From: Candidatus Omnitrophota bacterium
GTDB lineage: Bacteria > Omnitrophota > Gorgyraeia > Gorgyraeales > Gorgyraeaceae
Reading direction: 5' to 3'
Assembly: GCA_042572045.1 (NCBI GenBank)
Contig: JBHPFI010000001.1
Coordinates: 47,818-111,817, forward strand
Length of the DNA: 64,000 nucleotides
Below the pieces are notes generated by a model. That model had not been told where the DNA came from, did not search any database, and was given only the letters and a program-made list of their open reading frames with translations. The position numbers were made by a program, and so were the translations under genes. Positions 32,534 to 63,312 of this stretch are shown here, piece by piece. The stretch's first letter is position 1; every line of letters starts with the position of its first letter.

Positions 32534-32542
32534 GAGATAGAT

Positions 32543-32613
32543 TAGATGTATCCCGCTTACAGATTCCCTCTGCGATACTTCCGAATCCCTTAAGCAGGCC
32601 AGGGGCCAGGTAA
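32543..32613 (+). pseudogene. orphan 3'-terminal fragment of the giant-gene family (last ~22 codons plus stop)
   Basis: agatgtatcccgcttacagattccctct matches the gene 2 3' end. gcgatacttccgaatcccttaagcaggccaggggccaggt matches the gene 1 3' end. There is no upstream ORF. The fragment is followed by the same downstream sequence and promoter module as gene 2. Confidence 0.65.
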
Positions 32614-32693
32614 AAATCTTACAGTACAAAATATCCAAAATTATCCCCATAAAACCTGAAATATTATGTTAGTTGGTAATCCCTCCGAGCTTA

Positions 32694-32722
32694 TTGACTA
32701 TTTTAAAGGCTAGTAGTAAAAT
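32694..32722 (+). promoter_or_regulatory. conserved promoter module (TTGACT-17-TAAAAT), copy 1 of 3
   Basis: cttattgactatttt[a/g]aagg... is shared with 48753-48781 and 58850-58878. Confidence 0.45.
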
Positions 32723-32812
32723 AAGGACAATAAGTGAGAACCACGGGGCGGGGTTCGAGATTTAGAAGATAGCTTATGTAAGATGGCTATCTAGATAAAG
32801 GAGGTATCAAAA

Positions 32813-38252: not shown

Positions 38253-38415
38253 CCGTTCTCCCGCTTTCTAAAAGCAGTATCATGTTTTTCCCTTCAAGCA
38301 TTTCTTAAAAAATCTATTGACAGGAAAGAGTTTTCATAGTATATTTATAATTTTTTATAAAATATGTAAATAATGTATTGGGGCTCATGCCGAAGGACGG
38401 GTACCAGGAATTTGC

Positions 38416-38444
38416 TTGAAGGATAACGTTTTCTGTGATATACT
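38416..38444 (+). promoter_or_regulatory. sigma70-like promoter of giant gene 2 (TTGAAG-17-TATACT)
   Basis: Paralogous to 17790-17818 and 59344-59372. Confidence 0.5.
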
Positions 38445-38546
38445 TTATATTAATCAGATATACATAGCAGGGATATTTAGGCCATAGAATATATAGATAT
38501 ATGTATTAACCAAGCCGTTAAGAAAGGCTATTTTTTTGCCTACATT

Positions 38547-41500
38547 ATGATAAACTTTAAAAAACTCTTCAGTATGAGGATTGTATCATTAGTCGTAGCT
38601 GTAACATTCTTTGTTACATCTACGTCTTATGGCATAGATATACCTGATAGATCCCACTTAAGGACCCCTCTTTTAACAAATTCAGACCAAGGGACCAGTA
38701 GGTTAAAGCAAGCCCTATTCTACCAGTTAAGACAGATGCTAGGCCAGGTAGTCAATGCAGACACTTCCAAAGACCTTGCCTTTTACGAAGGAGAAAAACA
38801 AGCCCTTTTGCTAGAAGATGGAAAGATCCTGGTAAATGAAGAGCTATATGATAAGTATAACTCTGAGATCCCGGGAGAAAGAACCGAAGCCCTTCAGGTA
38901 CTCATACATGAGACAGTAGAGGCACTTCTCCAGGTTGTAAAAAGAAACCATTCCTCCAGATATCAGACTATGAAGGAGCTGGCCTTAAGTAACCTCCCAG
39001 CACTCTATTTTCGCATTCCCCACCAAGCTGATAAGACCTACCGCGATGAAATCCTTGCAAATGACATCTGGGCAGTTGCATTTGAATACAGAATGATGGG
39101 CATAACCCCAGAACAGGTCCAAGACCCTGATCTCCAAAACTTCCTAAAAAAATCCTATGAGATTATTGATGCACGCAGAAGCCTATTTGGTGAGGAGTTC
39201 AACAGCCCTTACAGGGCTAAAGAGACTGTAGTAGAGGCCTTAAGAAGAGGGTTTGAGTTTAAGAGGGTAGCGAGAGCAGACGCGCAGGAAGAGATGAAGG
39301 GCGGGAAAGAGGTAGTTTTTTTGCAGGCCAGCGTGGCCGACGATTTAATCTATCCAGAAGGCAAGTCGGGATTAATGAACTCTGTGGAAGAGCTGAAAGG
39401 CAAGCCGATTAGGTTTGATATTATCAACGGAGAGATTTTGTTGCAAGATGAGCAGCCGCTATTTAGATTATTAGGGCTTGAGACTTCTCATTCTCAGCAG
39501 GATTTCTTGGAGTATGGGCTCTGCGCGCTTATCCGGGAGCGGCTCTTAGAGACAGATGTTTCTACATTAGGCGATTTGCGCAATCTTAGTTTTGTTTTTG
39601 GTGACGAAGATAGTGCTTCTGTCTCTGGATTTGATTTCCGTAGCCCATATGCTAAAAGTGGAAGAAACGGAATATTTTTTATAAACGTTAAGGCATTAGC
39701 TGCGCTAGAAAAGCCTCAGGACAGACAGACTGCTTTTATTTTAGGCGTCTCACATATGATATCGCATGAGGCCTTAAAAGGCGCGGATACAGTTGAACCA
39801 ATTTTGCTGGCCCAGGATATAAGATTAGCGACTACTCCCGGCAGAATCAGCATGGACCCTAGCGCTTTTATTGAAAACTTTAGAGCTACTGTAAGGCTTG
39901 ACTCCGGACCTTATGAGGGCATATTAAGATTTCTTGATACCGGCTATTTACGGCGAGAGAATATAGAAATATTAGCATCTAGCGGCATAATGAGAGATTT
40001 ATTTCAAGCCCTACCTGAATTGGATGCATTATACGCGGCGCGTTACAAAGGAAAAAGCTTTCTTTCAAAAGAGGAAAGAACAGCTGTGTTCCAATATGCC
40101 ACTATATTGGTCCATCAGGGAAGGATAAAGGAGGCCAGAGAAGTTATTGAACAACCGCTTGGTCGAACTGCTATACTCGGCAGTAGTTACGACAAAGAAT
40201 TATACAAAGCAGAACTCCAGTATTATTTGAATATGGGAGATATTGTTTCAGCGGTTACGCTTACAGAAAAGTTTTTTGCAGAATTTCCAGATGACTGGAG
40301 GGTAACGAACGGAAGTTTTGTAAAAGAGTTTGTTAGTAGAGGATATTTTCAGCAAGCTCGCGAACTTCTGAAAAAATACTATCAAGGCGATGAAATCCGT
40401 CCCGGCGGAGAGCTGCAACATATCGCGTTTTTGTATAAAGAGCTAGGGGAGTTTAATGATTTAATTAATATATGTAAACTTATACCCCTTCAGTTCAAGC
40501 CAGAAGATAGGCCTCGCGAACAATATGCTATGATAACATCTTGTATTCTTGCAGATATGGCGATACATCTTGTAGAAGAAGGCAGGATGAGCGAAGCAAT
40601 CGCCATTGCTTATGAGCCAGGACTTGAGCCGTATAGATTAGTAGTGTTAGCCAAGCTAGTTACTTTTCTTCTAACTAGTGATCGCGCTGATTATCAGGCT
40701 GAAGCGATGAATATCGTCGATAAACTTAAAGACGACCAAATTGTCAGCGCTTTAGTTAATAAACGAATAAGCATGTGGCCTGACCAGCCGGCATATGATT
40801 ATTACTATTATGCTTATATGGAAGGTGTTTACGCAGAAGCAATGTTTGCTATAGGTGAGTATGAATCATTAGCTCGTAAGGTTATCGTGACTACCAGTAT
40901 GGATTTTAATCTGGATTATATATTAGAACGTATTGGTTATGGCGAAGATTTATCGAGATTTATTCAGACCTGCGTAGTGGTTGCTGCAGAGGTCGAGCCC
41001 CCTCAAAACAATATCTATTATCATAATCGCGGTCAATTGCATTTTAACTGTAGAATCGCTAGGATTATGTTTGACTGGGTGTATGAACATGGCTATAGAA
41101 AAACCGCAGAATTCATAGATTCCTATTTAGATGATATTGAGCCAGATAGAACTCATCCAGAAAGACCTTCTTGGGTAATAGCAAAATTAACAGCCCAAGC
41201 TTGTTTACGTAGGGAAATGGACGATTCCCTTGTTGAAGAATGCCGCGGCTACGAAAACGGAGAAAAAATTCTAACTAGCCTTGCCGAACAACGTAAAAAA
41301 AGAAACGAAGCTTTTCCAGCAGACAAAGAAAAAAAAGGCATAAGGAGGTATTGGGAAGATGAATACACTCGAAAGTTTAAACAAACTACAGGAAGTCTTG
41401 ACATAAGAGCTGCTGGGTATCCATCATTGCAAACTTTATTGGAACGCCCTGTTGACCCTTTCAGTGCTAAGAGTAATAGATTTCCAAATATGACTAAAGA

Positions 41501-44500
41501 GTGCCATGGATATGTTACGCGTAGTTCATGGATACTATCGCGATCAGTTATAGGAGCAGTGCTAGAGCGCAGAGAAGGGTATGACAGATTGGCGGAAGAA
41601 ATCGGACCTTACAGGGTTCAGGCACTTTTAGATAGTGTTATACAAAGAAGAGGCGCTGATGCTTATTTTGTTTTCGAGGGGTTTATTGCACTTTTTCATG
41701 CCGGGATTACTAACGTTGACATGTTAGACAGGATAGACCTTGTTCTTACTCCTCTGGCCAGAAAGGCAGGTGTCGGGATAGCTAAGGCCTACGAGGATTT
41801 TGTAGATTTACTATCAGCAGGCATTCCTATTGAAGAAGGCTTGAAGCTTATAGGGACGGTAGTCGAAAGAGAATCTAGTGAGATTTCGGTCGCATATGAT
41901 AGCTTATATGTACTTATTAGAGAAGATATAGTAAATGTTTTAGTTCAGGCCGGCATTTCGCAGCAAGAAGTAGTAAGCTTTTTACAAAACATTGCTACTG
42001 GAGATAGATGGGATACTTCTTTTATTTTTTGGAGCTTAGTAGCGTTGGCCAGGTCAAATCTTATAAACGGAGATAGCTATCCTACCATTGGCCATCTATA
42101 TAAGGAGCTCTCATCATTCCAGAGGGGTGTTAGGAGATTTAAAAGTCTATTTAATAGAGCTAACGGGGCGGTCACAGAAGAGCATTTTAAACAGTTTGAA
42201 GAACGGGCCAAGGATATATATAATGCGCTTGAAATGCAGAATATAATTAGAAAAGGGCAAGTAGTAAAAGAAGAGATAGAAGAGTTTCTTGGTCTAGACG
42301 TAGACCAGGCTGATAGAAAGTATTTGGCGGGATTAAGCTTAAGGAATACTCAAGAGCTCTCGACAGTGCAGAATATTTTGAGAGAAATTTACGGCCGTGC
42401 CTTTGCCGAACAGCACAGGATAGATGAAGTGCGTTTCTGGCCAATGCACCTTAGAAACATAGCCTTTTTCCAGGTAGCTTGCGGAAGAATAGGTCTGGAT
42501 GTTGCGAATTTTGTCGTCAGTTCCTTAGGACCGAGAAGATTGGACAATTTTCTGACGCAAACAATGGAAATATATACTGACGAATCTTATGTGCGTGGAT
42601 TAATTTCGCTATTAAACGGTTCCCAGGACAGGCATCCCGGGCTTGCTTTGCATATAGTGGAATACGCCGCGGCCTATAGCCAGTTAGAGTTGGGAACAGA
42701 GTTTGGCAAGGTAGTCGCAGGAGTGGTGTCGGATAAATTTGGACTTAGACAGGCAAAAATAGACTTAGGAACCGAATTATTCAGGCTATTTTCCCAACAG
42801 CTTGGCTTGCAAGTGGATAACATATCGGAAGATATGATTAATGCCTGGGAGTTGAGCTATCTTTCTAAATTGTTTGTGGGACGCAAAATGATTCATGCCA
42901 AGGGAACGGCCTACAGGCCCCTTCAGGATTTATTCGATAGCATTATTACATCAACGCTCGAGGGCAGGTTTGAGCAATTTATTATGGACACTAATCCTGA
43001 GACAAACGCTTATCCGATGGGCGTTAGAGTGGCCGAGCACAATGAGCAATTAAGAGCGGCGTTGTCCGAAAAGGGGATAGACGTGGCTTTTTGGCTTAGG
43101 TACAGTGAGACGAGCTCCTTTGGTTTTAGTGCCGAAGAAGACGAAGGCGAGGTCATTGATATAATCGGTGAATTGGGTGCATTGGCCGATGCCCTTTCTT
43201 TTATATTGAATAAACTTCCGGGCGATGAAGCGAGGTATGGAGAAGCCATTCTAGGCAGCCTTAGAAAGATGGAGATTTTTCTTGATACGACGGATCCGGA
43301 GCGCCCCTTTTTCTGTAGGATCATGAAGGACGGCGAGCTGTCTACTGATCCGGAAGATGTCTTGTCCGTCTTGTTTGACGGACAGAGATTGCCGGGCTTG
43401 AGAAAAAATCTTGCGTATGTGCAGGGACGCACCGTAGAGCAGGAAGTCGCGACTGCGATATTTCATTTTGTAGAGGATATAGATAGGGTCGACGGAATTG
43501 TCGCAAAGACGGATTTAAAAGATCTTACAAGTGGCGCGGAGAGGTTTACGGTCAAGGTGTGGGGTCGAAACCCCGCAAGGGATATATTCCAGGGTAATTT
43601 TACCAGTTGTTGCGTTGCGATTGATAACAATCTTCATCCGGAGGCGATCCTGGAATACTTAATTGATCAAGGTATTCAGGTGGTAGAGGTGATTAATGAA
43701 GCCACAGGCGAAACGATCGCCCAGACATGGTGTTTTATCGCGATGGATGGTGATGGCGAGGCTGTCTTGGTTATGGACAACATAGAGGTGGTAGGTAAAT
43801 ACGCAGCAGCAGGAACTGATGAGAATAATATAATCAGGGATAATATACTAAGCTATCTGCAAAGATATACGAGGGCAATAGGCGCTAAAGGTCTTTATTT
43901 GGGAAACACCCCATATCAAGACGTGGATGTATCGACGTTTGAGAGAGTTCCGGTAAGCCTGACAAAGTTAGGAGGCAATCTATGGGCTTATGAAGGAGAG
44001 GGTCAGGGGTATCGTTATTATCTGGAGGCGCTTTACAGCGAAGACCGCAGCAGGAGAAAGACTGAGGCCCACAGGATGTCGTTACCCGAGGTGTCCGTTG
44101 ATGAGACTGCAACCGATGCAGGCTTTAGCATAGAAGTCATTACTCCTGATACAATCGATTGGAAATTGATAGGCGAGTTGGCAGCAGTAGAAGTCGATGC
44201 CTATGCTGGGCCTATGGTACTGGGCGTAGAATCCATTAGAAGCGTAGTGGAAAACCCTAAAGCCGTATGCCTTGTTATAAGAGATGACTCCAGCGGGAGA
44301 ATCGCGGGATATCGATTTGCCATACCTTCGCAGGAATATCCGCAGAGTCCGATTGTAGGGGCTGACATACTTTATGGATACGATATCGCAATCCATCCCA
44401 AATATCAAAGGAGAGGGCTTTTTAGCAGGCTGCACGCGGAATTTATCGAGGAGGCACGCGCAAGAGGTTATACAGCGATGTCTGCGCATGTCAGAATAGC

Positions 44501-47500
44501 GGGCAATGTCCCTGAGCCCCTGCGTTGGCCAAGGATATGGATAGAAAGGCTAGAGGGACGACCCGTTAAAGGCGGACAGATTGTCTTTCCTGATAACGGA
44601 AAGCGTTATTCCGACTCGATCCTTTTGGATTGCGCGATCCCGTGGCTCGATGGTGAATCGGCAATCCCATGCGTCCTGGATCTGGCTGAAACAGAGTCTC
44701 CAGACGTTGATTTGCAAGGTAGAGATGAGAGCGGAAAATTTGCAGAGCTCCCCATGAAAAGCCCGGGATATATGAGGGATTTTGTAGCGACCCATTATGG
44801 AGACAGCCCTTTTACCATAGCTCAATATATTAAAGATTGGGAGACGGCTAACCCCGGAAGAAGATTGCCGAGCAGCACAGCCTATAGTGACTTAACTAAA
44901 GCAAGGGCAAACGGATGGATTGAGAAATTAGAGGGACCTCATTATAGACTTGCCGAGATAGGACAGGTTCAGAATGTCGGCCATGTCGAAGCATGGGAAG
45001 AAGATGTAAGTGTCGCTAAAGAGCAAGTTGTAAAAGTCCTTGTTCTCGATGATGACTATCATATGCTCAATGCAACCAAGGAAAGACTTGCCGCCTCAGA
45101 GATTGTAAGTATAGAAACAGCAGCAGAAATGGATGAAGGACTCAAAATATTAGAGGCCAATCCAGATATTAACTTTTTAGTGCTTGATTTTAGACTCTTT
45201 GAGTATCCCACTGAAAATGGAGTTCAGTTTTGCAAGAAGGCGTTTAAGGCCCCTTATAATTTTGAAGGAAGAGTTGTGATTTATTCAGCCGATGATACCG
45301 CTATTATAAGTGAGCTTAAGCGCTATCCCGACCTGTGGGACAGGTATATACAAGGACAGATTTCTATTCAATTAAAACATGACACAAGGGCATTCGAAGA
45401 CATAAGGGCCAGGATTATATCATTCGCAAGGGGTGAAGAGGCGCTGCCTCAGGAAAGCGCTACGGATATCGTAGCATTAGAAGAAGAGCTTCCGCTTGCA
45501 GCATTAACGATAACACCAGATGATATCGGCATTACTCCTGCCATTGTAGATCGATTTAGGGATTGCCATGTAATCATAGCAGATGATAAGCCTTTTATAA
45601 GAAATGCTATCGAGGCAACGGTTAGCAGATTTTTTGATAACGTACATAAATTAGGTACGGTCGAAGATGCTGTAGAATTGGTGAAGGCATTGCGCAGACA
45701 AGGCGTGCCTGAGGAAAGGATAATAATCCTTTCTGATTATGAGTTCGGGACCGAACAGACAGGTATAAGACGGCTGGATGGTCGCGATTTTGTGAACATG
45801 TTGAGGTTAGCCCCGAACGCTGACTATCCCGAGGAGACCCTTGGCTTTATGGGATTCTTCTTCTTTGTTTCAGGAAGTATTATTTCTAAAGACCAGATAT
45901 CCGGCTTTAACAAGTCCGCAAAGGATATTGACTTTGAAGTCAAGGTAAAATATGGGATTGATTATATTGAGAAAAATGCCGATGAAGAGTTTCCGATTGC
46001 ACTGCTAAAAATGGTCTATGTCAGACTTCAAAAGCCGTATAATTTAAGCGCAGATATTACTGATGCCCTTCCACGTAAGCCTATGTCTAAGCCGGCTGAT
46101 ATCAGTTTCTTGAACGGAGGCGTTAATGATTTTGAAACAAGGCTTAAAATGGGCCTTAGGGTTTTAAAAGATTCACTAACAGAACTTGCGCCCAGAGTGG
46201 AAGACAGAGAGGCCTTAAGAAGGATAGAAGAGGTTCTTTCTAAAATGAGTGCATTTTTTGAGCTTGGAAATGTTGACAGGAGCCTTGCCTTTAATGTGCG
46301 TACCCATAATTACAAAGGGCATATTTTTTACGCAGCAGGTTATTTAACTCCCCAGATACGCGAAGAAGTAGAGTCCTTGAGTGCTTCTGATAGAGAAAAA
46401 TACGGACCATTCCTTGAGCAATTGGATAATCTAAGCTTAACGATGAATGTCGCCGCAAACTATATGCTTAGATTATTAAGATTATCCGCAGCAGTCGGGA
46501 ATATTAATATGCCTATTACTTTTGAGGAATTTATACATAATACCGTAGAGATTTTTCTTACCGATTATGGAAAGCGAGTAAGTATTGAAACGGATTTTGA
46601 TAGAGACAGCCTTGAAGGCCTGGAATTTCCCTATGGCCTCGCCTTTATTGTAGCATTCATATTGGATAATGCCCTTGAACAGTATCAGGTAAAGTTTGGC
46701 AAGGATTTTAAAGGCAAGATATTTTTTAAGGTCAATAAGGAAGAAAAGACACTTGAAATAGAAATAATTGACGAGGCGGGTGGCATACCAGAGAAGGTAT
46801 TGCCTAATATATTTCTGAGAAAGTTTACTACAAAGGTACATGGCGCCGGGTTTGGATTATTTTGGGCTAAGCAGCTGATGGGCATGTATGATGGTGAGAT
46901 TGCAGTGCGCAACGAAGGCGATGGCGCCTGTTTTACCTTGACTCTTCCGCTTGATTGGAAACGCATTGCAGAAGAAAAAGAATACGCCCCCGAAGAACTT
47001 ATGCAGCGAGTCCTTGATGTGCTCGCCGAACGCGGCAATCCTGATGCGGAGGAACTTGCAGAGAAGATCGCGAGAGAGATTTATACATACAGCACCAAAA
47101 TTGCTGAGGTTACTAAGACAAGAGAGACAATCTCACACGAATCTTATTTATATCAAGGTCACAAGCACATTAGATACAAAATAGAAGAGATGCTCAACAC
47201 TTATTTCCTGGCTATATGTACTGGCGACTACCAGGTTTTTAGAGATATTATTTTTGAAAAAGGCACGACGCAAAAGGACATAGAAGACCTTTTATTATCG
47301 CTACTTGCGCTTAAACAGGTTGAGGAGAAAGAGGACATAACATTCGCACATTTACCAGTAAGACAGGCGGTTGTGCTCTTATATGATTCTGAAGGCAGAG
47401 CACGGATCTTGCTTCGTTCAAAAGAGAATCTTGCGAGAGAAGAGGAGGGCATTACGCCAGAAAAAAGGAATAGGTATCAAAGAGTATTACGGCAGACTGG

Positions 47501-48674
47501 TTACGCTATACATAAACTAGGCGGAGATGTCGGACATATGTCCTCAGCATTCTACTTTATTCACACGGACGGCAAGATTAGTGAGGGGAAAAAAGACTAT
47601 CTTGAGAGATTATTCAGGCAAGATCTCCCGGACGAGGTCTATGGCATGATACATACATATACAAGCTCAGGAGAACAATTATCAGGGTTTGAGGATGATA
47701 TTCTATGGATAGAAAGAGTGGATGGTTGGCTAGGAGCAATCTCTGATCAGGCAAGGGCATTTATGAATGCGAAAGAGCGGTTAGATCAGGCATTAGAGGG
47801 CGTTGAATTAGAAGAGGGGAGCACGGCTGAAAGAGAAGTAAATAGAGTACGCAGAATTGCTGAGACGAGCCAGACTCTGTTAAAACTTTTACATGGTCAG
47901 CAATTTGAAGATAAAGAGGTTATGGATATTTCTGTGTATCCAGACGAGGATTCCAGAGTGCACGGAAAGGAACAGTTTCACTTTAACGTTTCACCTGGTA
48001 CTAGGTTGAGGTTAAGTTACTTTTTCTTAGATAATATTATGTTAAATCTTTTTCGCTGTAAACCTAAAGATGAAGATTTTTATGTTGATGTAAAGGAAGA
48101 AGGTGGCTACACCGTATTTAACGTTAGATATAAAGGACAAGTTGATCCAGAGACAATGTTTGAGCCTAAAGAATCGCGGTCCACCCCCTGGCAGCGTTAC
48201 GGCCCTCTCATACATGACCTAATTGATGCAGTAAATGGTGAAGTCACTGCTCAGAATGTAGGCGAAGATGTTGAGATAGCCATAAGGTTTCCTCTTCCAG
48301 ATATTGATAGCCAGGGTACGCTTCTAGATGCCCGCGCAGATCTGAATAAATTAAAACAAACCGTAGTATTATTCTCAGGAGACGAAGCGCAAGATAATCT
48401 TGGTGAGTTCAAGCTGGCATTAGGTGAGCTAGATGAGACCAATACAGCTGTAGTAATAGTAGGTTCAGAAGAACAGCAGAGATTTTTCGTAGAGCACAGA
48501 GGAGAACTAGGAAGATTTTATATTAGAACGCCGGAACAAATAGGTTTGGCCGGCGTTGATTTGAATCAAGTCATGACTACGATAATGGGCATAGATAATC
48601 TTAGATGTATCCCGCTTACAGATTCCCTCTTAAACGCCAACCCATCCTTGAAACAGGCCAGGGACCAGGTGTAA
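38547..48674 (+). CDS. giant secreted multidomain protein, paralog 2 (3375 aa)
   Basis: The N-terminal ~230 aa are ~75-85% identical to paralog 1. Internal domains: GNAT (IAIHPKYQRRGLFSRLHAEFIEEARARGY ~44100-44500), the conserved ~70-aa module (44704-44926), two receiver-like domains (KVLVLDDDYHMLN ~45030-45380; HVIIADDKPF ~45570-45900), a GHKL/HATPase_c domain (LDNALE...IDEAGGIP...GAGFGL ~46660-46960) and a second HATPase-like region (~47990-48300). The C-terminal ~110 aa are near-identical to paralog 1. Confidence 0.85.
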   Translation: MINFKKLFSMRIVSLVVAVTFFVTSTSYGIDIPDRSHLRTPLLTNSDQGTSRLKQALFYQLRQMLGQVVNADTSKDLAFYEGEKQALLLEDGKILVNEELYDKYNSEIPGERTEALQVLIHETVEALLQVVKRNHSSRYQTMKELALSNLPALYFRIPHQADKTYRDEILANDIWAVAFEYRMMGITPEQVQDPDLQNFLKKSYEIIDARRSLFGEEFNSPYRAKETVVEALRRGFEFKRVARADAQEEMKGGKEVVFLQASVADDLIYPEGKSGLMNSVEELKGKPIRFDIINGEILLQDEQPLFRLLGLETSHSQQDFLEYGLCALIRERLLETDVSTLGDLRNLSFVFGDEDSASVSGFDFRSPYAKSGRNGIFFINVKALAALEKPQDRQTAFILGVSHMISHEALKGADTVEPILLAQDIRLATTPGRISMDPSAFIENFRATVRLDSGPYEGILRFLDTGYLRRENIEILASSGIMRDLFQALPELDALYAARYKGKSFLSKEERTAVFQYATILVHQGRIKEAREVIEQPLGRTAILGSSYDKELYKAELQYYLNMGDIVSAVTLTEKFFAEFPDDWRVTNGSFVKEFVSRGYFQQARELLKKYYQGDEIRPGGELQHIAFLYKELGEFNDLINICKLIPLQFKPEDRPREQYAMITSCILADMAIHLVEEGRMSEAIAIAYEPGLEPYRLVVLAKLVTFLLTSDRADYQAEAMNIVDKLKDDQIVSALVNKRISMWPDQPAYDYYYYAYMEGVYAEAMFAIGEYESLARKVIVTTSMDFNLDYILERIGYGEDLSRFIQTCVVVAAEVEPPQNNIYYHNRGQLHFNCRIARIMFDWVYEHGYRKTAEFIDSYLDDIEPDRTHPERPSWVIAKLTAQACLRREMDDSLVEECRGYENGEKILTSLAEQRKKRNEAFPADKEKKGIRRYWEDEYTRKFKQTTGSLDIRAAGYPSLQTLLERPVDPFSAKSNRFPNMTKECHGYVTRSSWILSRSVIGAVLERREGYDRLAEEIGPYRVQALLDSVIQRRGADAYFVFEGFIALFHAGITNVDMLDRIDLVLTPLARKAGVGIAKAYEDFVDLLSAGIPIEEGLKLIGTVVERESSEISVAYDSLYVLIREDIVNVLVQAGISQQEVVSFLQNIATGDRWDTSFIFWSLVALARSNLINGDSYPTIGHLYKELSSFQRGVRRFKSLFNRANGAVTEEHFKQFEERAKDIYNALEMQNIIRKGQVVKEEIEEFLGLDVDQADRKYLAGLSLRNTQELSTVQNILREIYGRAFAEQHRIDEVRFWPMHLRNIAFFQVACGRIGLDVANFVVSSLGPRRLDNFLTQTMEIYTDESYVRGLISLLNGSQDRHPGLALHIVEYAAAYSQLELGTEFGKVVAGVVSDKFGLRQAKIDLGTELFRLFSQQLGLQVDNISEDMINAWELSYLSKLFVGRKMIHAKGTAYRPLQDLFDSIITSTLEGRFEQFIMDTNPETNAYPMGVRVAEHNEQLRAALSEKGIDVAFWLRYSETSSFGFSAEEDEGEVIDIIGELGALADALSFILNKLPGDEARYGEAILGSLRKMEIFLDTTDPERPFFCRIMKDGELSTDPEDVLSVLFDGQRLPGLRKNLAYVQGRTVEQEVATAIFHFVEDIDRVDGIVAKTDLKDLTSGAERFTVKVWGRNPARDIFQGNFTSCCVAIDNNLHPEAILEYLIDQGIQVVEVINEATGETIAQTWCFIAMDGDGEAVLVMDNIEVVGKYAAAGTDENNIIRDNILSYLQRYTRAIGAKGLYLGNTPYQDVDVSTFERVPVSLTKLGGNLWAYEGEGQGYRYYLEALYSEDRSRRKTEAHRMSLPEVSVDETATDAGFSIEVITPDTIDWKLIGELAAVEVDAYAGPMVLGVESIRSVVENPKAVCLVIRDDSSGRIAGYRFAIPSQEYPQSPIVGADILYGYDIAIHPKYQRRGLFSRLHAEFIEEARARGYTAMSAHVRIAGNVPEPLRWPRIWIERLEGRPVKGGQIVFPDNGKRYSDSILLDCAIPWLDGESAIPCVLDLAETESPDVDLQGRDESGKFAELPMKSPGYMRDFVATHYGDSPFTIAQYIKDWETANPGRRLPSSTAYSDLTKARANGWIEKLEGPHYRLAEIGQVQNVGHVEAWEEDVSVAKEQVVKVLVLDDDYHMLNATKERLAASEIVSIETAAEMDEGLKILEANPDINFLVLDFRLFEYPTENGVQFCKKAFKAPYNFEGRVVIYSADDTAIISELKRYPDLWDRYIQGQISIQLKHDTRAFEDIRARIISFARGEEALPQESATDIVALEEELPLAALTITPDDIGITPAIVDRFRDCHVIIADDKPFIRNAIEATVSRFFDNVHKLGTVEDAVELVKALRRQGVPEERIIILSDYEFGTEQTGIRRLDGRDFVNMLRLAPNADYPEETLGFMGFFFFVSGSIISKDQISGFNKSAKDIDFEVKVKYGIDYIEKNADEEFPIALLKMVYVRLQKPYNLSADITDALPRKPMSKPADISFLNGGVNDFETRLKMGLRVLKDSLTELAPRVEDREALRRIEEVLSKMSAFFELGNVDRSLAFNVRTHNYKGHIFYAAGYLTPQIREEVESLSASDREKYGPFLEQLDNLSLTMNVAANYMLRLLRLSAAVGNINMPITFEEFIHNTVEIFLTDYGKRVSIETDFDRDSLEGLEFPYGLAFIVAFILDNALEQYQVKFGKDFKGKIFFKVNKEEKTLEIEIIDEAGGIPEKVLPNIFLRKFTTKVHGAGFGLFWAKQLMGMYDGEIAVRNEGDGACFTLTLPLDWKRIAEEKEYAPEELMQRVLDVLAERGNPDAEELAEKIAREIYTYSTKIAEVTKTRETISHESYLYQGHKHIRYKIEEMLNTYFLAICTGDYQVFRDIIFEKGTTQKDIEDLLLSLLALKQVEEKEDITFAHLPVRQAVVLLYDSEGRARILLRSKENLAREEEGITPEKRNRYQRVLRQTGYAIHKLGGDVGHMSSAFYFIHTDGKISEGKKDYLERLFRQDLPDEVYGMIHTYTSSGEQLSGFEDDILWIERVDGWLGAISDQARAFMNAKERLDQALEGVELEEGSTAEREVNRVRRIAETSQTLLKLLHGQQFEDKEVMDISVYPDEDSRVHGKEQFHFNVSPGTRLRLSYFFLDNIMLNLFRCKPKDEDFYVDVKEEGGYTVFNVRYKGQVDPETMFEPKESRSTPWQRYGPLIHDLIDAVNGEVTAQNVGEDVEIAIRFPLPDIDSQGTLLDARADLNKLKQTVVLFSGDEAQDNLGEFKLALGELDETNTAVVIVGSEEQQRFFVEHRGELGRFYIRTPEQIGLAGVDLNQVMTTIMGIDNLRCIPLTDSLLNANPSLKQARDQV
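44704..44926 (+). repeat. conserved ~70-aa module, copy in giant gene 2
   Basis: DVDLQGRDESGKFAELPMKSPGYMRDFVATHYGDSPFTIAQYIKDWETANPGRRLPSSTAYSDLTKARANGWIE. About 90% nt identity to 19915-20136. Confidence 0.8.
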
Positions 48675-48752
48675 AACTTACACTAGAAAACATCTAAAAA
48701 CACATCTCCATAAAAACTGAAATATCCACTAGCCAGCAACTCTTAGGGCTTA

Positions 48753-50631: not shown

Positions 50632-50633
50632 AC

Positions 50634-52298
50634 ATGTCACGGTACTACAATCCCAAAAGAAAGAAAAATCTCTATACCCCAGATATGATTAGAATATTGC
50701 TATTAATAGCAATATTTATCTTTAATTCCTTTGTATCCGGGCCTATCTATGGAGTGACCCTTGATGAGCGGTACGGTCCTATATTAGAAAAAGATACATT
50801 TCTTTATAAGGGCGAGGCAGGGTATTTTGAACTGGATGAACAGGGGTATCATGGCCACGGCTCTTTTAATGATTTTAACTCTAACCCAAAGTATCATACC
50901 TTTCAAAGTTCTCTAGAATTCTCCCCTCTAAAAACTCTGGAAGTCGAAGCAGGCCTTTCCCGCACGTTCCCCGAAGGTTATGAGAGGCTCGTATATAATA
51001 CAGCAGGTGCTTTAAGCGCGCTCTATGAATACAATCTGGATTATTTTCAAGAGTACGACCTTGGCCTCAGAAAGAGATGTAAAGATTTTGAGGTCTATTT
51101 TAACTTTTCAGGAAAATACCAGAAGGCAGATTGGAACTATGCGCCTTACCCGAGCGCCGCAAACTTTTTTACGTGCATCCGCACGCACTATGAGGATTTT
51201 AAATTAGGCCTTAAGCATGTTTCAGCTTCTAAGGACAAAGAGCTCTCTTCCATGGAAAAGATCAGAGGACCTTTTCTCGCCAAGGGTCAGGCGAACGTAG
51301 AGATAGAAATAGGTTATAAGCAGGGCGAGGTAATAAGGGATTCTAACAGCCATCATTATTATCATACGCTTAACGCCCATGCTATACCCAAACTTACTGT
51401 GAGGTACGGCTTGGATGAGGACCTCGAGATAGAAGGAGGGGTCTTTTATACAACGCCTTTTGTGTATGAATATGAATACAATCTTTATTCAACAGGGGAG
51501 ATATGTATCGGAGAATATGAGCTTGAGAATAATTTTTATTTTCCTATTAAGTTGAAGTATTGCCATGATGACAAGCTTCTCGCCACTCTTTCAACAGACA
51601 TCAATGTGATAGACCAAAACCTTGACTATGTACAGGGTATAGGAGCTGCTACTGAGTACCCGTCCAGGAGCCTTACTTATTATAATATTTCGCCGACTAT
51701 TACACTTAGCTATCTCTGCGATAAGGGAAAAGATATAAAAAGCGATAAATTCTCCAGTCTTACCAAGGAGCTCCTGCTTAAAAAGCAGTTTTTGATCGAC
51801 TTTAAATATAAGAAGGATATCACCCATCTCAGCAAGGGCTCTACAAATGCTGCCCAGAATATAATAGACCCTTACAATGTATTTATGTATCCATTGGATT
51901 ATTTTATAGTGGGGACTGAATACGCTGCATTTTTAGCAGGCAACGTCTCTTCTGCTGCCACCAACATCAATCCCCAGAATTATTATGTAATAGAGACGGC
52001 TTTTACTTATGGCATAGCTGATTTTATCAATGCAAATTTCATGGCAGGATATCGTTCGGAGAGTTCCCTGCATCACTTTACATTAAATGATCTAAAGAGG
52101 CGCTTCTATGATTTCCAGCCTTATTATTATTTTGGGGCAGGGTGTGATTGGCGGATCGGGAAAAATAGCTTAGTAAGCCTGAGTTCAAAGTTTGTTCCTA
52201 CCTATAAGACATTCCTTGTGCGCGAGGGAGATCCTGAGCAATATGAAGTCGAAAATGAGTATTTCCAGGCAGCTCTTGGCGTAAAAATTATTTTCTAG
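50634..52298 (+). CDS. putative outer-membrane beta-barrel protein
   Basis: Real start probably MIRILLLIAIFIFNSFVSG (~50685). Tyr-rich amphipathic strands. Ends GVKIIF (C-terminal Phe). The first 17 codons duplicate the start of the 55515 gene. Confidence 0.45.
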   Translation: MSRYYNPKRKKNLYTPDMIRILLLIAIFIFNSFVSGPIYGVTLDERYGPILEKDTFLYKGEAGYFELDEQGYHGHGSFNDFNSNPKYHTFQSSLEFSPLKTLEVEAGLSRTFPEGYERLVYNTAGALSALYEYNLDYFQEYDLGLRKRCKDFEVYFNFSGKYQKADWNYAPYPSAANFFTCIRTHYEDFKLGLKHVSASKDKELSSMEKIRGPFLAKGQANVEIEIGYKQGEVIRDSNSHHYYHTLNAHAIPKLTVRYGLDEDLEIEGGVFYTTPFVYEYEYNLYSTGEICIGEYELENNFYFPIKLKYCHDDKLLATLSTDINVIDQNLDYVQGIGAATEYPSRSLTYYNISPTITLSYLCDKGKDIKSDKFSSLTKELLLKKQFLIDFKYKKDITHLSKGSTNAAQNIIDPYNVFMYPLDYFIVGTEYAAFLAGNVSSAATNINPQNYYVIETAFTYGIADFINANFMAGYRSESSLHHFTLNDLKRRFYDFQPYYYFGAGCDWRIGKNSLVSLSSKFVPTYKTFLVREGDPEQYEVENEYFQAALGVKIIF

Positions 52299-53175
52299 GA
52301 GAAATAAGTCTAAAGGGCATTTCGCTTGGGTCAGGGGGAGGCTCTGGTTCAGGCTCTGGTTCTGGTTCTGGCTCTGGCTCCGGTTCAGGTTCTGGAGGTG
52401 GCGGAGGTGGTGGTTCTGGTTCAGGCTCTGGGTCTGGTATAGGCTCGGGCTCAGGTTCTGGTTCTGGAGGTGGAAGCGGTGGTGGTTCTGGCTCTGGTTC
52501 TGGCTCCGGTTCAGGTTCTGGAGGTGGCGGAGGTGGTGGCTCTGGTTCTGGTTCGGGCTCAGGTGGCGGTTCTGGCGGAGGTTCGGGCTCAGATGTCCTG
52601 ATCACTCGACCTCGATTAGCATAGAGCTCCATGCGGTCAGAGTCCTTATCATGGCCAAAAGGCGCCAGCATTTCGTTTGGCGACATATTGCCCTGACCTC
52701 TATTATCAATCGGATTATAAGCCCATCTTGACTTGTTTAATTTATCAAGAGATGCTTTTAGCTCCTCAATCATCATTCTTTTCTCATTTGCCTCGACCTG
52801 ACGCATATTTCTTTTAACAGGTCTTTTTGCTTTTTCAAGCTTGGCCGATACCTTAAACGCCTTTTTATTCTGGTCTTTTTTCTTGCGCCCGGTTTCAATA
52901 ATATGTTTTCTATTTATCGAGTTTCTATTCCCTTTGATATTTACGGAAGAGGGCGATGGACCTTTCTTTATTTTATTATTATTTGGGCTTTTGTTTGAAG
53001 GCGGCGTAGGCGTTGGTGCAGGGTTTTTATTTTGACCGGGAGCATTTACTGAAGGATTATTTTTCTGGGCGTTTTTTCCCGCGCCTTTATTTTTATTATT
53101 ACCGGCATATGCTATATCGCTTTCTATAAGCAGAAAACACATAGTTATGCATAATAATAATCTTAAGATCTTCAT
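52288..53175 (-). CDS. secreted Lys-rich / (Glu-Pro)n repeat protein
   Basis: Signal peptide MKILRLLLCITMCFLLIESDIAYA. A basic N-terminal half is followed by ~90 residues of almost pure EP/PPP repeats (EPEPEPEPPPPPPPEPEP...). The periodicity resembles the TonB proline-rich spacer. Confidence 0.5.
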   Translation of the reverse strand: MKILRLLLCITMCFLLIESDIAYAGNNKNKGAGKNAQKNNPSVNAPGQNKNPAPTPTPPSNKSPNNNKIKKGPSPSSVNIKGNRNSINRKHIIETGRKKKDQNKKAFKVSAKLEKAKRPVKRNMRQVEANEKRMMIEELKASLDKLNKSRWAYNPIDNRGQGNMSPNEMLAPFGHDKDSDRMELYANRGRVIRTSEPEPPPEPPPEPEPEPEPPPPPPPEPEPEPEPEPEPPPLPPPEPEPEPEPIPDPEPEPEPPPPPPPEPEPEPEPEPEPEPEPEPPPDPSEMPFRLISPRK

Positions 53176-59463: not shown

Positions 59464-62400
59464 ATGATAAACTTTAAAAAACTTTTCACTTTAAAGATTA
59501 TATCAGTAATAGTAAGCATAGCATTCTTATGTAATGCCAGTCTATATGCCCATCCTGAATCAAAAAATACTTTAAGAATATCTGTTGGAGAGCAGCGTAC
59601 ATTTGATCGCATTGACGACACAATGCATCAAATGGTGATAGATGAGCCTCTTGCTGAGGCTGCTAAGGAAGCAGGCACCCCCCGTCTAAATCCTTTATAT
59701 TTATCTAATCTTAGTCCAGAGATAAGCGAAATATTGACTTTACTTAGACAAACTGGTTTAGGTAATTTCGCTGAAGCACTTAAGAGGCTTTGTGATGAAG
59801 AAAGAGTCCAACGTTTTAGTCCTGGAAGAGGCGAATGGATTGGGATATATGGTCATGCATCTGATGAGCGGATAACTGTTAAAGCTGGGCTTGAAGCAGC
59901 TAGAGAAGGGGCAGTCTTAGGTCATGAATTATTGGATTGGTTTAATGTGCAGGTTGATAGCGTGGAAGAACTATCAACTTGGATTGAAGTAAATGAAAAT
60001 ACCCCAAGGCATCTTGGTCCAGCATTTGAAGTAGCTTTAAATAGAACTCTTTCCGGAGACACTGATGTATTAACAAGATTTGTTGAAGACTTCAGAAGAT
60101 ATTTAGAACCCATCAATGTAGCTACAAGACTTTCTGAGCAACCTAACTTATTAAAAGAGACAGCAGAAACAGAAGAAAGGCATTATACTTCAGTACCGTA
60201 TTCATCGCTGAGTATGGAGCAACGCTTTAAAGAAGCCATGGGCAGCAGATACGAAAATATTAGAAATTTTCGTATAGACATGAGAACGGGTAGATATGTA
60301 TTTGAAAAAGCATTAAACAAAAAACCTGATGTCTGGATAACTTATTATTACGAGAACGCGGTCCCTGTGGATCTGGACGGAAGTATTGATGACCTTCTGG
60401 CATTATATGAAGAAAGCGTTCAGGAGGACGAAAGCAATGTTGATATAAGATATTTGATATTCAAACGAATCGCGAAATTCAGGGATAGGGCGTCTCATCT
60501 GGAAGGGGTATTAAAAAATATAATGGATACAGAAACATCAGATAGGGTTCTGGATGAAATACGGGTCGCAATAAATATTGTATCAGGTAGGGCTATTGAC
60601 GGGGGTAAGCGTTTAAGAGTAGCGTATGCCAGCTACGAGATTTCCCCGTTTGTCGGAAAAGGTGGCATAAAAGACGTAATACAACAACTTCCTCGCACTT
60701 TACATAATAAGCGCGGGCATGAAGCTAGCGTTTTTATCCCTTACTGGGAGGAGATCTTAGATAAGTCAGTAGAGGGAAATGATGCAGAAATCAGGATAGA
60801 AGAGGTTGGGGTTTTTGAGTTGCACGGCGAAAGAGTAGAGATATACACCCTTCTTATGCGCAATGAACTTACGGGCGACTTTGAGCCAATAGACGGAGTG
60901 CCTATATATTTATTAAAATGTGCCAGATATTTTTCAACTGAAGATGGAGATATATACAGGCAGGCGTTGGATAGAAAAATAGCTTCGCATCGTATAAGCC
61001 CTAAAAACGCAGAGACTGCCATATTTTTCTCAAAGGCCGTACTGGAGGCAATGAAGCAAATGGGATTAAGGCCTGATATTATCAATACAGCTGACTGGCA
61101 AACAGCCCATATAGCTACATTATTAAGAAAATCAAAAAATCCCGAGTTATACAGTTTTTTCAAAAGTACAAAGACCTTGCATACTATCCATAATATAGGC
61201 CCAAAAGGTCTTATTGCGGCGTCTCCTTATGCGCCTGAAGGCAGTGATGAGAGGGATATGTGGGATTTTATGGGGATCAGCGATGATGCGTACCAGCCGC
61301 CTGATCAGAATGGAGTTGAGTTTTACGGTAGCGCATCTTTGCAAAAAGGAGGGATTGTTTTTGCGGATATGGTAAGTACAGTAGGGATAAGCTATGCGTC
61401 TGAGCTCAAGACAACAGAATTCGGCTCAGGATTTGAGGGTATCAATAGGGTTGCAGGGGTAATAGGGGTACCTAATGGCATAGCATTAAGGGAATGGAAT
61501 CCAGCTAGCAGCTTCTCTATAGAACGTAATTTCAAGAATGATCCTTCGGAACAAGACAGGCAATTGAGTGTTTTGGATGCAAAGGAAGGCAAAAGAGAGA
61601 ACAAAAAAGCAATGACAGCGATGGTAAACGACAACAGAGAAAGGAATAGGGCTACAACCCTAAGAGAATTTACATGCGATGAAGATACTCAGGTTTTTTG
61701 TTTTTTAGGTAGATTTGACGCTCAAAAGGGGTTAGACGTATTATTATCTGTATTAGAAAATGAGCATGAAATAAAAGGTCTCCTTGAGAGCGGGAAGATA
61801 AAGATGATTTTCGCAGGCACAGGGAATCCTGAATATATGCAAAGGGTCAAGAAACTCGAGGAGCTATATCCTGAAAGCGTTGCGTATCTGGGCTGGGTCA
61901 ATGAGGGCACTGCTAAGCAGTTATTTGCTGGAGCTGATGTCAATATCATGCCTTCCATATTCGAACCAAAGGGCATAGTCCAGATGCAGGCTGCTCGGTT
62001 CGGAGCCATAAATCTTGTAAATAAGGTAGGCGGTTTAAGGGACGACATAATAGATTTTTCGGAAGAAGAGGGCGGGAATGGCTATGTCGTAGATTTTGCC
62101 AATTGTAGCAAAGAAGAAGCAGCTAGGTTGCTGCGCAATCAAATGCTTCGGGTAATGTGGGATTTTGGCAATAAGGCAATCTGGGATGCCCAGGTCAGAG
62201 AGGTTTTGGCTGATTCTGCAAAATTCGGATGGGACCTTTCCTGCTTGAAATATGAACTACTCTTTAACGCATCAACAGGAAACTATTATGATCTATTTAC
62301 AAGGCATTTGGTTGATCATATTGACGAGATAACTGGCGCATCTTTTGAAAGGATAATGACAGAAATAGGCAAAGCTTATCTGGCTAGAACAAGGGTATTT

Positions 62401-63312
62401 GATCCTTTAACAGGGACAGTGATGTTGACAGGAGCTGACGCAAAAGAATTTTTGCTTAGGTCAAAACAGTTCTATCACGAAACAACTGTATGTAATCTTG
62501 ATCCGAATCCTATGACAGTAGAGATTGACGAAACCTCGGTAACCCTTGATGATATAGGTGTCGTAGCGATAAAGCCTGGGTCCAGTTTATTGTTTAGAGA
62601 AATAAAAGGCGAGGTAGTGGTAATAATAACACAAAATCCAGAAGCAGTCAGTAGCTGGTATGCTCCTTACGACGAATCTCACGATTTATTTAAAGATAAA
62701 GGCTATAATGAGTCAGGGGTAATTTCCCCGCCTGAATGGTGGCAAAAAGGAGTCACTGTGATAGAGCATGAGTCCAGGGTTAACCAATGGACCTCCGAGC
62801 AGGAGCAGGAATGGCTTATTGATTCCATGACCTTTGGGTCCAATCTCCCAGGGATTTCTATGGTGAGATATTCTACAGATACGGGTGAGGCATGGGTCGA
62901 TTTTAGGGAAATAAGGCCAAGTGAGGACTATCATAGTCATCCAAATAAACCAGAAGGACAAGCAAACTTTATAGAAGTTTATTATATAGTTGAAGGTATG
63001 GCAACATTGCTATATGAAGAAGAAGGGGTGGTAAAAGTAACTGAGTTAGGCCCAGGAGGTATGTGGATAGCAAAAGACGAGGTCCCGCATACAATATTGG
63101 CATTTAAAGGCCCATATAAACATCTGGCGATACAAGTACCAAGTGTATTCCAATATGGGTTTAGATTCAAGGAGATTGTGGAACCGCCCCAGCCAGGTAT
63201 GGAGGAAATGTTAATGCAAACCCAGGAAGCAGACACAGGTATTTTAGAACTGCCCCCGCCAAGCATAGAGGAAATATTTATGCAAAACCAGGAAGTAAGC
63301 AGAGGGGTATAG
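59464..63312 (+). CDS. giant-family paralog 3 (1282 aa) with embedded GT5 glycogen-synthase-like and cupin domains
   Basis: N-terminus MINFKKLFTLKIISVIVSIAFLC shared with the family. ~60617-62055 looks like GlgA (RVAYASYEISPFVGKGGIKDV...GHEASVFIPYW; ...FLGRFDAQKGLD...MPSIFEPKGIVQMQAARFGAINLVNKVGGLRDDI). C-terminal cupin (HSHPNKPEGQANFIEVYYIVEG...PH ~62930-63140). Confidence 0.8.
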   Translation: MINFKKLFTLKIISVIVSIAFLCNASLYAHPESKNTLRISVGEQRTFDRIDDTMHQMVIDEPLAEAAKEAGTPRLNPLYLSNLSPEISEILTLLRQTGLGNFAEALKRLCDEERVQRFSPGRGEWIGIYGHASDERITVKAGLEAAREGAVLGHELLDWFNVQVDSVEELSTWIEVNENTPRHLGPAFEVALNRTLSGDTDVLTRFVEDFRRYLEPINVATRLSEQPNLLKETAETEERHYTSVPYSSLSMEQRFKEAMGSRYENIRNFRIDMRTGRYVFEKALNKKPDVWITYYYENAVPVDLDGSIDDLLALYEESVQEDESNVDIRYLIFKRIAKFRDRASHLEGVLKNIMDTETSDRVLDEIRVAINIVSGRAIDGGKRLRVAYASYEISPFVGKGGIKDVIQQLPRTLHNKRGHEASVFIPYWEEILDKSVEGNDAEIRIEEVGVFELHGERVEIYTLLMRNELTGDFEPIDGVPIYLLKCARYFSTEDGDIYRQALDRKIASHRISPKNAETAIFFSKAVLEAMKQMGLRPDIINTADWQTAHIATLLRKSKNPELYSFFKSTKTLHTIHNIGPKGLIAASPYAPEGSDERDMWDFMGISDDAYQPPDQNGVEFYGSASLQKGGIVFADMVSTVGISYASELKTTEFGSGFEGINRVAGVIGVPNGIALREWNPASSFSIERNFKNDPSEQDRQLSVLDAKEGKRENKKAMTAMVNDNRERNRATTLREFTCDEDTQVFCFLGRFDAQKGLDVLLSVLENEHEIKGLLESGKIKMIFAGTGNPEYMQRVKKLEELYPESVAYLGWVNEGTAKQLFAGADVNIMPSIFEPKGIVQMQAARFGAINLVNKVGGLRDDIIDFSEEEGGNGYVVDFANCSKEEAARLLRNQMLRVMWDFGNKAIWDAQVREVLADSAKFGWDLSCLKYELLFNASTGNYYDLFTRHLVDHIDEITGASFERIMTEIGKAYLARTRVFDPLTGTVMLTGADAKEFLLRSKQFYHETTVCNLDPNPMTVEIDETSVTLDDIGVVAIKPGSSLLFREIKGEVVVIITQNPEAVSSWYAPYDESHDLFKDKGYNESGVISPPEWWQKGVTVIEHESRVNQWTSEQEQEWLIDSMTFGSNLPGISMVRYSTDTGEAWVDFREIRPSEDYHSHPNKPEGQANFIEVYYIVEGMATLLYEEEGVVKVTELGPGGMWIAKDEVPHTILAFKGPYKHLAIQVPSVFQYGFRFKEIVEPPQPGMEEMLMQTQEADTGILELPPPSIEEIFMQNQEVSRGV

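Follow-up and report, generated by a model that had tools for sequence, protein, structure and literature searches.

How does a single bacterial protein come to combine an export-type leader with signaling and acetyltransferase modules that need cytoplasmic cofactors, and in which compartment would such a protein work? The question is raised by g2, a gene in a 64,000-nucleotide (nt) stretch of a Candidatus Omnitrophota bacterium (GenBank assembly GCA_042572045.1, contig JBHPFI010000001.1, positions 47,818 to 111,817; this whole stretch is called the window, and all coordinates refer to it). The gene, which we judge to be genuine, is one unbroken open reading frame (ORF; 38547-48674, + strand) of 3,375 amino acids (aa), and its product comprises an N-terminal Sec-type leader, a GNAT acetyltransferase, two receiver-like domains, a canonical HATPase_c kinase core, and a degenerate kinase-fold module. 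The Omnitrophota origin of the window is supported by its UvrD, which is 86-89% identical to those of several Candidatus Omnitrophota metagenome-assembled genomes and one single-amplified genome. The explanation that we favor, giving it a little better than an even chance, is that g2 encodes a genuine Omnitrophota mosaic fusion, leader-bearing and equipped with a self-contained phosphorelay cassette that probably regulates or localizes its enzyme cargo.

The evidence that carries this explanation centers on the kinase core, the only part of g2 that matched in NCBIfam and PDB when the protein was run through Pfam, NCBIfam, and PDB sequence searches. The catalytic ATP-binding (CA) domain of this first kinase module (46617..46964, +) contains a Pfam HATPase_c match at aa 2698-2802 (nt 46638-46952; E = 1.9e-14; 54.5 bits against a cutoff of 26.4) and displays the N box LDNALE (from aa 2706, nt 46662), the G1 box DEAGG (aa 2742-2746), an F box, and the G2 box GAGFGL (aa 2766-2771). 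An earlier reading of this DNA from its letters alone (hereafter, the sequence-only reading) had proposed a GHKL ATPase here, and the N, G1, and G2 boxes are indeed found where it put them. It had also raised the matter of a phosphorylatable His in a DHp-like helix upstream. Such a residue, H2587 (nt 46305-46307), is present in the DHp-like helices of module 1 (46227..46616, +) within the motif FNxRxH[NK]YKG, and both the His and the motif are kept in all six sequences compared, namely, g2 and the five cassette homologues aligned with it (P0004 to P0008). When the family profile was compared with a profile of true HisKA/HATPase_c kinases (P0009 to P0011), the two matched with E = 2e-27, and H2587 fell exactly on the phospho-His of the AHEINNPL segment of those kinases. 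The cassette homologues are 40-55% identical to g2 overall; down to 40% identity, N2708 and D2742-EAGG never vary, the G2 glycines are conserved, and the catalytic segments rank among the best-conserved portions of the cassette. Module 1 has both the H-box His and the Bergerat fold that mark a class I histidine kinase. A pseudokinase reading was also considered, as a single-sequence phmmer alignment to PDB 9p6i had set F2582 on the phospho-His; that alignment is shifted by 5 residues, and we rejected the reading because, by family conservation and profile-profile alignment, it is the invariant H2587 that occupies this position.

N-terminal to the kinase core lie the receivers. Receiver 1 (45030..45401, +; aa 2162-2285) presents D2168/D2169, D2214, S2247, and K2277, and is matched by Pfam Response_reg (PF00072) over aa 2164-2250 with 29.8 bits, slightly below the cutoff of 30.2; all covering homologues, which amount to only four full-length sequences, conserve these residues. 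Receiver 2 (45561..46016, +; aa 2339-2490) is divergent and contains insertions. All homologues covering this domain conserve the corresponding residues (D2346/D2347, D2397, S2442, and K2476), and in an hhalign profile-profile comparison with receiver 1 (E = 1.5e-4) the DD, Asp, and Ser positions line up. The sequence-only reading had claimed two receivers, of which the first is a probable receiver, with conserved residues and a score just short of the cutoff, and the second proves to be very divergent. Because the phospho-His, the N, G1, and G2 boxes, and the receiver Asp, Ser, and Lys are conserved in homologues, kinase module 1 is not a fossil, and its catalytic activity is predicted from these conserved residues.

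The second kinase-fold module (47427..48251, +; aa 2961-3235) consists of DHp-like helices with H2989 and H3036, followed by a CA-like domain. Here sequence gave little: a Pfam scan of the region (near nt 48000) returned no match, a sequence-profile match was weak (E = 0.006), and a profile search with the module recovered zero matches. The second CA-like domain matched the first with a nonsignificant E of 0.03 when compared by sequence only, and a fold comparison was needed for this reason. In the AlphaFold model of the module, the predicted local distance difference test score (pLDDT) is 65-92 over the CA-like part and 50-65 around H2989 and H3036. Foldseek matched this model to DHp-plus-CA structures of histidine kinases (best E = 6.5e-8; 204 matches at E ≤ 1e-3), with E values for histidine kinase DHp-CA structures of 6.5e-8 to 3e-6, and the matches include the ATP-independent ChpT (4fpp and 4qpj), DivL (4q20), and RetS (6dk7). 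The module retains the N-box Asn (N3163) but has another residue in place of the G1 Asp and lacks the G2 glycines; H2989 and H3036 are invariant. As modeled, then, the second module is a degenerate kinase fold without an ATP lid, resembling ChpT, DivL, and RetS. The "second HATPase-like region near 48000" of the sequence-only reading is borne out as a kinase fold, although its nucleotide-binding boxes are degenerate. That reading had further held that the lack of a His/Asp pair together with a degenerate ATP lid would mark fossil domains, a description that fits module 2 only and fails for module 1, whose ATP lid is intact.

These conserved residues suggest how the cassette may operate. The first CA domain would bind ATP and phosphorylate H2587, from which the phosphoryl group would pass to D2214 and/or D2397 of the N-terminal receivers, and the lid-less second module would take part in phosphotransfer or regulation, much as ChpT, DivL, or RetS does. 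For a single-chain His-Asp-His-Asp relay, an active kinase would suffice together with the two receivers and a ChpT-like module. The cassette would then be a self-contained switch that travels with the fused cargo (the GNAT domain and others) and probably regulates or localizes it, rather than a decoy.

Several observations weigh against this explanation. The roles given to both receivers and to the second module are deduced from sequence, and the sequence-profile alignment of the H2989/H3036 region to reference kinases is unreliable. Receiver 2 is recognized weakly, with a Pfam E of 0.2 over the first 41 profile positions only, and the G1 box of module 1 reads DxAxG, not DxGxG. The family is small, with five cassette homologues and four N-domain homologues. 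Finally, a Sec-exported body with no obvious source of ATP conflicts with a working kinase, a point that is taken up below.

Among the closest parallels are hybrid histidine kinases and phosphorelays (e.g., CckA-ChpT-CtrA and ShkA), which, like g2, have a HisKA-type H-box His, an HATPase_c domain, and receivers on the same polypeptide; with ChpT, DivL, and RetS, g2 shares a kinase-fold module lacking the ATP lid. Unlike the hybrid kinases, g2 has its receivers ahead of the kinase, has neither a sensor domain nor a transmembrane (TM) pair, and shows G1 as DxAxG; furthermore, its cassette stands behind a Sec-type leader within a fusion of 3.4 thousand amino acids (kAA), and its activity is a prediction from sequence.

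That g2 is a mosaic fusion of at least six cassettes follows from the piecewise matching of its segments to different long proteins and from the spread of GC content at third codon positions, 0.32-0.48, between the cassettes. An exhaustive HMMER search of 1.84 billion representative proteins, with aa 240-1439 as the query, recovered 10 matches only, nine of which are long proteins (1,381-4,199 aa) and the tenth a 173-aa fragment, and different sub-segments of the query were matched. We divided g2 into cassettes with a BLAST map against all collected relatives. Each cassette occurs singly or reordered in other Omnitrophota long proteins, and two of them (the helical/TPR-like and signaling cassettes) elsewhere stand directly behind their own leader. 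The REC-REC-HK-pseudoHK signaling cassette (aa ~2150-3235, +) can be aligned over its whole length with Omnitrophota proteins that stand alone, of which P0004, P0006, and P0007 are about 1,140-1,180 aa long (1,143-1,179), each with its own hydrophobic leader; the gene for P0006 is set among housekeeping genes.

The remaining cassettes are, in order, as follows. Behind the leader comes the family-defining N-domain (38634..39281, +; aa 30-245), which is 72% identical to that of the paralogue g1 (see below) and 46-52% identical to those of P0001 to P0003 and of a protein of locus L003. It has no match in Pfam, NCBIfam, or PDB, and an AlphaFold2 model of leader plus N-domain was unusable (pLDDT of 48.5). 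A profile scan for the N-domain found no relatives in GTDB species genomes and one locus in metagenomes. Its relatives adjoin mobile-element genes, with an IS21 transposase and IstB at L001, IstB at L002, and a tyrosine recombinase at L003, and P0002 is apparently truncated beside an insertion sequence. The N-domain is followed by an HExxH-related cassette (39246..39905, +; aa 234-453), in which P0015, P0017, and P0021 read SHEA[VMI]HE, like HExxH metalloproteases, where g2 has the degenerate SHMISHE with the Glu lost. Next comes the helical/TPR-like cassette (39912..42062, +; aa 456-1172), with weak Pfam TPR signals at aa 511-602; in P0013 it sits directly behind that protein's own leader. 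A helical-"CC"-GNAT cassette (42513..44516, +; aa 1323-1990) contains the conserved "CC" domain (with GNFTSCCVAIDN at aa ~1683-1694), for which a PDB profile search found nothing significant and Pfam and NCBIfam gave chance-level matches only. At its end is the GNAT acetyltransferase (nt 44253-44507, +; aa 1903-1987), matched by Acetyltransf_1 (PF00583) with 29.7 bits against a cutoff of 20.7. The consensus for the GNAT acetyl-CoA motif is Q/RxxGxG/A, which the QRRGLF of g2 fits in part. The sequence-only reading had set this acetyltransferase next to the signaling modules; the domain is real, and it lies inside the same ORF and is not a neighboring gene. A highly conserved module of ~100 aa (44667..44981, +; aa 2041-2145), winged-helix-like by eye only and present in two copies in g1, had no significant match in PDB profile, Pfam, and NCBIfam searches. 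The protein closes with a C-terminal module (48252..48671, +; aa 3236-3375) that is 68% identical to the C terminus of g1 and 34% identical to that of P0015; it was poorly modeled by structure prediction, Pfam and NCBIfam scans gave chance-level matches only, and no PDB relatives were found. P0015 (3,663 aa; locus L006) has the g2-like C-terminal tail ..LQCIPLTD.. and a PilZ gene behind it, and its 5' end lies within 65 nt of the contig end.

Two paralogues in the window show the same principle of construction. The gene g1 (18025..28536, +; 3,503 aa) has the leader, N-domain, ~100-aa module (twice), and C-terminal module of g2, with 72% identity over leader plus N-domain and 68% over the C-terminal module; its cargo is a HAD hydrolase and a Methyltransf_28 domain. 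In g3 (59464..63312, +; 1,282 aa), the MINFKKLF leader, the only part of the protein held in common with g1 and g2, is fused to a glycogen/starch synthase that matches the glycosyltransferase families GT5 (E = 1.5e-43) and GT1 and whose KGGI-x-DV motif is intact; ~380 aa on its N-terminal side and ~350 aa on its C-terminal side have no assignment. What unites the three is a shared upstream module, found at g2 in 38395..38546 (+) with a promoter-like TTGAAG-17-TATACT site at 38416-38444 and a 5' untranslated region (5' UTR) of ~95 nt. Repeat search, alignment, and promoter scan located it again before g1 (17769-18024) and g3 (59323-59463), so that promoter, 5' UTR, and the first ~20-29 codons are common to three genes with different bodies (17769-18089, 38395-38611, and 59323-59528). 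Before g1 the module is tandemly duplicated (17873-17979), and the start codon of the extra copy has decayed from ATG to AAG. Considered as a structured RNA, the 5' UTR offered a predicted 4-bp stem only and no covariation. As part of the explanation that we favor, and with the same slight lean toward it, this module of promoter, 5' UTR, and leader would co-regulate and co-target three paralogues with different cargo.

Other recurrent elements were noted around these genes. An intergenic relic of a giant-gene 3' end (32542-32611) is 87% identical to the last 70 nt of g1, and the repeat search joined it with a downstream promoter-like element (together 32542..32724, +). That element, TTGACT-17-TAGAAT, recurs (also at 48704-48785 and 58801-58882) just before the ORFs starting at 32813, 48787, and 58906; because its -10 hexamer is so close to the start codons, the mRNAs of these three ORFs may be leaderless. 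A second shared 5' module of 70 nt (50611-50680 and 55492-55561; 91% identical) includes the start and first ~15 codons, and its peptide MS[RQ]YYNPKRKKNLYTP opens two ORFs that are unrelated to each other, one for a membrane protein of 554 aa and one for a PD-(D/E)XK nuclease.

The question of the compartment turns on the leader (38547..38633, +; aa 1-29). A Kyte-Doolittle scan of the 3,375 aa found only one segment, aa 7-30, that is strongly hydrophobic and resembles a membrane span; three lesser peaks, near aa 1536-1554 and 2688-2710, each include several acidic residues, and that at aa 2688-2710 falls within the kinase ATPase domain. By inspection, the leader has the Sec/signal peptidase I layout of a positive n-region (MINFKKLFSMR, +3), a short h-region (IVSLVVAVTFFV), and a small-residue c-region (TSTSYG, then I, continuing as IDIPDRSHLRTPLL). 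A positive n-region (+2 to +5) is present in 10 of 10 related leaders, most of which continue with ~12-13 hydrophobic core residues, then a polar stretch closed by Gly, Ala, or Ser, and then an acidic residue; those of P0004 and P0013 deviate from this pattern. An [LI]R motif is loosely conserved 6-12 residues beyond the leader. The signal peptide claimed in the sequence-only reading is therefore a real export-type leader as far as its hydrophobic segment and three-part layout can tell. In contrast, the "envelope-anchored sensory hub" that had been offered as an alternative is unsupported, as no sensor domain and no second TM segment were found in g2. The sequence of the leader is that of a cleavable Sec signal peptide, which makes export the default prediction and, on these features, the likelier reading. 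Against it stands the visible constraint on the recognizable domains of g1, g2, and g3, each of which needs a cytoplasmic cofactor (ATP, acetyl-CoA, S-adenosylmethionine, or ADP-glucose), so that the working compartment must supply them.

This conflict is what gives its force to the best of the rival explanations, namely, that the leader is an uncleaved anchor or docking helix and that the body remains on the cytoplasmic face, in the producer's own cytoplasm, as an ordinary soluble hybrid kinase. The GNAT, HAD, methyltransferase, and glycogen-synthase cargo would then meet its normal cytoplasmic substrates with all the required cofactors at hand, and the conservation of catalytic residues indicates that the domains are in use. 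Two published arguments count in its favor: Nielsen and Lui hold such a domain set to be compatible with a cytoplasmic-face location, in the TM-only class (bioRxiv 10.64898/2026.06.07.730766), and West-Roberts et al. caution that extracellular calls for metabolic domains may be topology errors (bioRxiv 10.1101/2023.11.21.568195). The features of the leader itself speak otherwise. Its charge bias (n-region +3, C-flank 0) predicts an N-in/C-out orientation, the core of ~12-13 residues with a polar, small-residue end in most of the leaders is that of cleaved signal peptides and not of anchors, and the ordinary cytoplasmic enzymes of the window have no leader of this type. In relatives with further hydrophobic helices after the N-domain, the numbers are apparently even (two in the L003 protein and four in P0001, counted partly by eye), which would leave cargo and N-domain on one side of the membrane and lends no help to a cytoplasmic placement. 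We regard a cytoplasmic-face tether as possible but doubtful.

A different way of reconciling export with the need for cofactors is that g2 is an effector or decoy, exported into or against a host or prey cell, whose ATP and acetyl-CoA its modules would use to subvert host signaling. The Sec-type leader fits such a role, as does the inferred lifestyle of Omnitrophota as episymbionts or predators, with giant-ORF peptides rising in attached V. archaeovorus cells (PMC10066038). The gene also lies mostly among envelope and secreted-protein genes (an outer membrane protein, a DUF3108-like protein, an M28 peptidase, and an alginate-export porin), and the build of g1 and g2, with variable enzyme cargo between conserved N- and C-terminal modules, is reminiscent of modular effector toxins. 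MARTX toxins are modular effectors of this kind, with conserved ends and swappable central cargo. The analogy extends to the N-terminal (72%) and C-terminal (68%) modules that g1 and g2 share around unrelated enzyme cargo; no RTX repeats, type I secretion signal, cysteine protease domain, or sequence similarity to MARTX was found in g2, and its N-terminal Sec leader differs from their C-terminal type I targeting. Nor was delivery machinery of secretion system type I, II, III, IV, or VI found within the window, or a translocation or autoprocessing domain detected in g2. The cassette's own His, Asp, and second kinase-fold module fit an internal relay better than foreign interference, and a leader-bearing glycogen synthase (g3) is hard to see as a signaling decoy. 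A decoy role, as put forward in the sequence-only reading, is possible and has no specific support, and we consider an effector or decoy function quite unlikely.

Very unlikely as a separate account, in our view, is a polyprotein that is cut after synthesis into cassettes acting as individual proteins like the free-standing homologues. The cassette boundaries do match the ends of those homologues, the gene directly downstream (immediately 3') of g2 encodes the M28 peptidase, and post-translational cleavage of Omnitrophota giant proteins has been proposed (West-Roberts et al., bioRxiv 10.1101/2023.11.21.568195). However, neither a C39, S8, or other processing protease domain in g2, where the HExxH-like motif is degenerate, nor a conserved cleavage motif at the cassette junctions was identified, and processing of this kind would be compatible with the mosaic-fusion explanation rather than exclusive of it. 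The notion that the signaling and acetyltransferase modules are decayed, noncatalytic passengers in a structural or scaffold protein draws on the second kinase module without its G1 Asp and G2 glycines, on the degenerate HMISH of the aa 234-453 cassette (intact in relatives), and on the high divergence of receiver 2, and is extremely unlikely given the phospho-His, N-box Asn, invariant G1 box, and G2 glycines of module 1 conserved down to 40% identity, the acidic pocket, Asp, Ser, and Lys of both receivers conserved in covering homologues, and the place of the catalytic segments among the best-conserved parts of the cassette.

Domain combinations like that of g2 have precedents in its phylum. 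In the 916-protein catalogue of Nielsen and Lui (bioRxiv 10.64898/2026.06.07.730766), 94% of the proteins have a signal peptide or TM helix and 9% a signal peptide only, and of the 779 Omnitrophota proteins of at least 10 kAA with Pfam hits, 136 contain HATPase_c, 105 a receiver, and 93 GNAT. Methyltransferase, HATPase_c, GNAT, and HAD form one co-occurrence module ("Module 1") in that study and receiver domains (105) with starch synthase (153) another, and the authors themselves address how metabolic content clashes with the external topology that is predicted. HATPase_c is likewise among the commonest giant-protein domains of West-Roberts et al. (bioRxiv 10.1101/2023.11.21.568195), and giant ORFs have been tied to a host-dependent lifestyle (Seymour et al., PMC10066038). 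Leader-bearing long proteins of Omnitrophota with HATPase_c, REC, GNAT, HAD, and methyltransferase domains are thus already catalogued in preprints of 2023 and 2026, and g2 is a smaller member of the assemblage; its combination, which the sequence-only reading had called atypical, is unusual for bacteria generally but not for Omnitrophota, as judged from the catalogue of proteins of at least 10 kAA. With the Omnitrophota long and giant proteins (Module 1 and Archaeovorin type), g2 shares the phylum, an N-terminal signal peptide or TM helix, and poorly conserved, mosaic sequences at variable loci; taken together, g1, g2, and g3 have the same HATPase_c, receiver, GNAT, HAD, methyltransferase, and starch synthase domains. 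It differs from them in being 3 to 40 times shorter (3.4 kAA versus at least 10 or 30 kAA) and in lacking internal TM helices, a SecA-DEAD domain, a C39/S8 peptidase, and an adjacent PilZ gene. The label "giant" used in the sequence-only reading is generous for 3.4 kAA, since the published classes begin at 10 or 30 kAA. With respect to Module 1, g1 and g2 together have the origin, leader, and domain set and fall short of the length of at least 10 kAA; Archaeovorins, defined as proteins of at least 30,000 aa that have many TM regions and a SecA DEAD-like domain, overlap with g2 in domain repertoire and not in these features. The parts of the two preprints (bioRxiv 10.64898/2026.06.07.730766 and 10.1101/2023.11.21.568195) that we read describe no g2-type N-domain, C-terminal module, or REC-REC-HK-pseudoHK cassette.

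The wider setting of the locus is as follows. In the close relatives whose UvrD is 86-89% identical, the flanks are unrelated and show no synteny with the locus. Across the window (1-64000), ORFs of at least 150 aa lie on the + strand with one exception, and cumulative GC skew climbs monotonically; hence, the whole window belongs to the leading strand of one replichore. A few kilobases downstream of g2, a c-di-GMP-I-GGC (cyclic di-GMP) riboswitch (53254-53336, -; 60.3 bits against a gathering score of 59) sits just upstream of a leader-bearing 295-aa ORF (53175..52288, -), the 3' half of which contains direct repeats spaced 12-24 nt (52327-52602); its position may be set beside the PilZ genes noted after giant genes (West-Roberts et al., bioRxiv 10.1101/2023.11.21.568195). 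A direct repeat of 110 nt, 82% identical, occurs intergenically at 11959-12068 and 56314-56423, 44 kb apart.

The significance of g2 lies in what may be called the Omnitrophota long-protein paradox, in which cytoplasm-type enzymes are found behind signal peptides or in predicted external loops. For this paradox the locus offers compact test objects, namely, the 3.4-kAA, single-leader g2 protein, the 1.3-kAA glycogen synthase of g3, and the 1.2-kAA phosphorelay cassette of relatives. It also shows a route by which such proteins are built, through the fusing of separate leader-bearing cassette proteins and the reuse of a shared promoter-leader module. The most far-reaching reading, that an intact ATP-dependent His-Asp phosphorelay and an acetyltransferase are exported by a true Sec signal and act outside the producer's cytoplasm, is unlikely. 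Were it true, the exported cargo of the paralogues would include a phosphatase and a methyltransferase (g1) and a glycogen synthase (g3); the site of action would be either a host or prey cell, implying a new class of Sec-dependent modular effectors, or a nucleotide-containing extracytoplasmic compartment of Omnitrophota; and the smallest members, amenable to experiment, would be the free-standing cassette proteins of 1.2 kAA. Export, if real, would mean that ATP-dependent signaling enzymes act outside the producing cell; if not, signal-peptide calls would be misleading for Omnitrophota long proteins.

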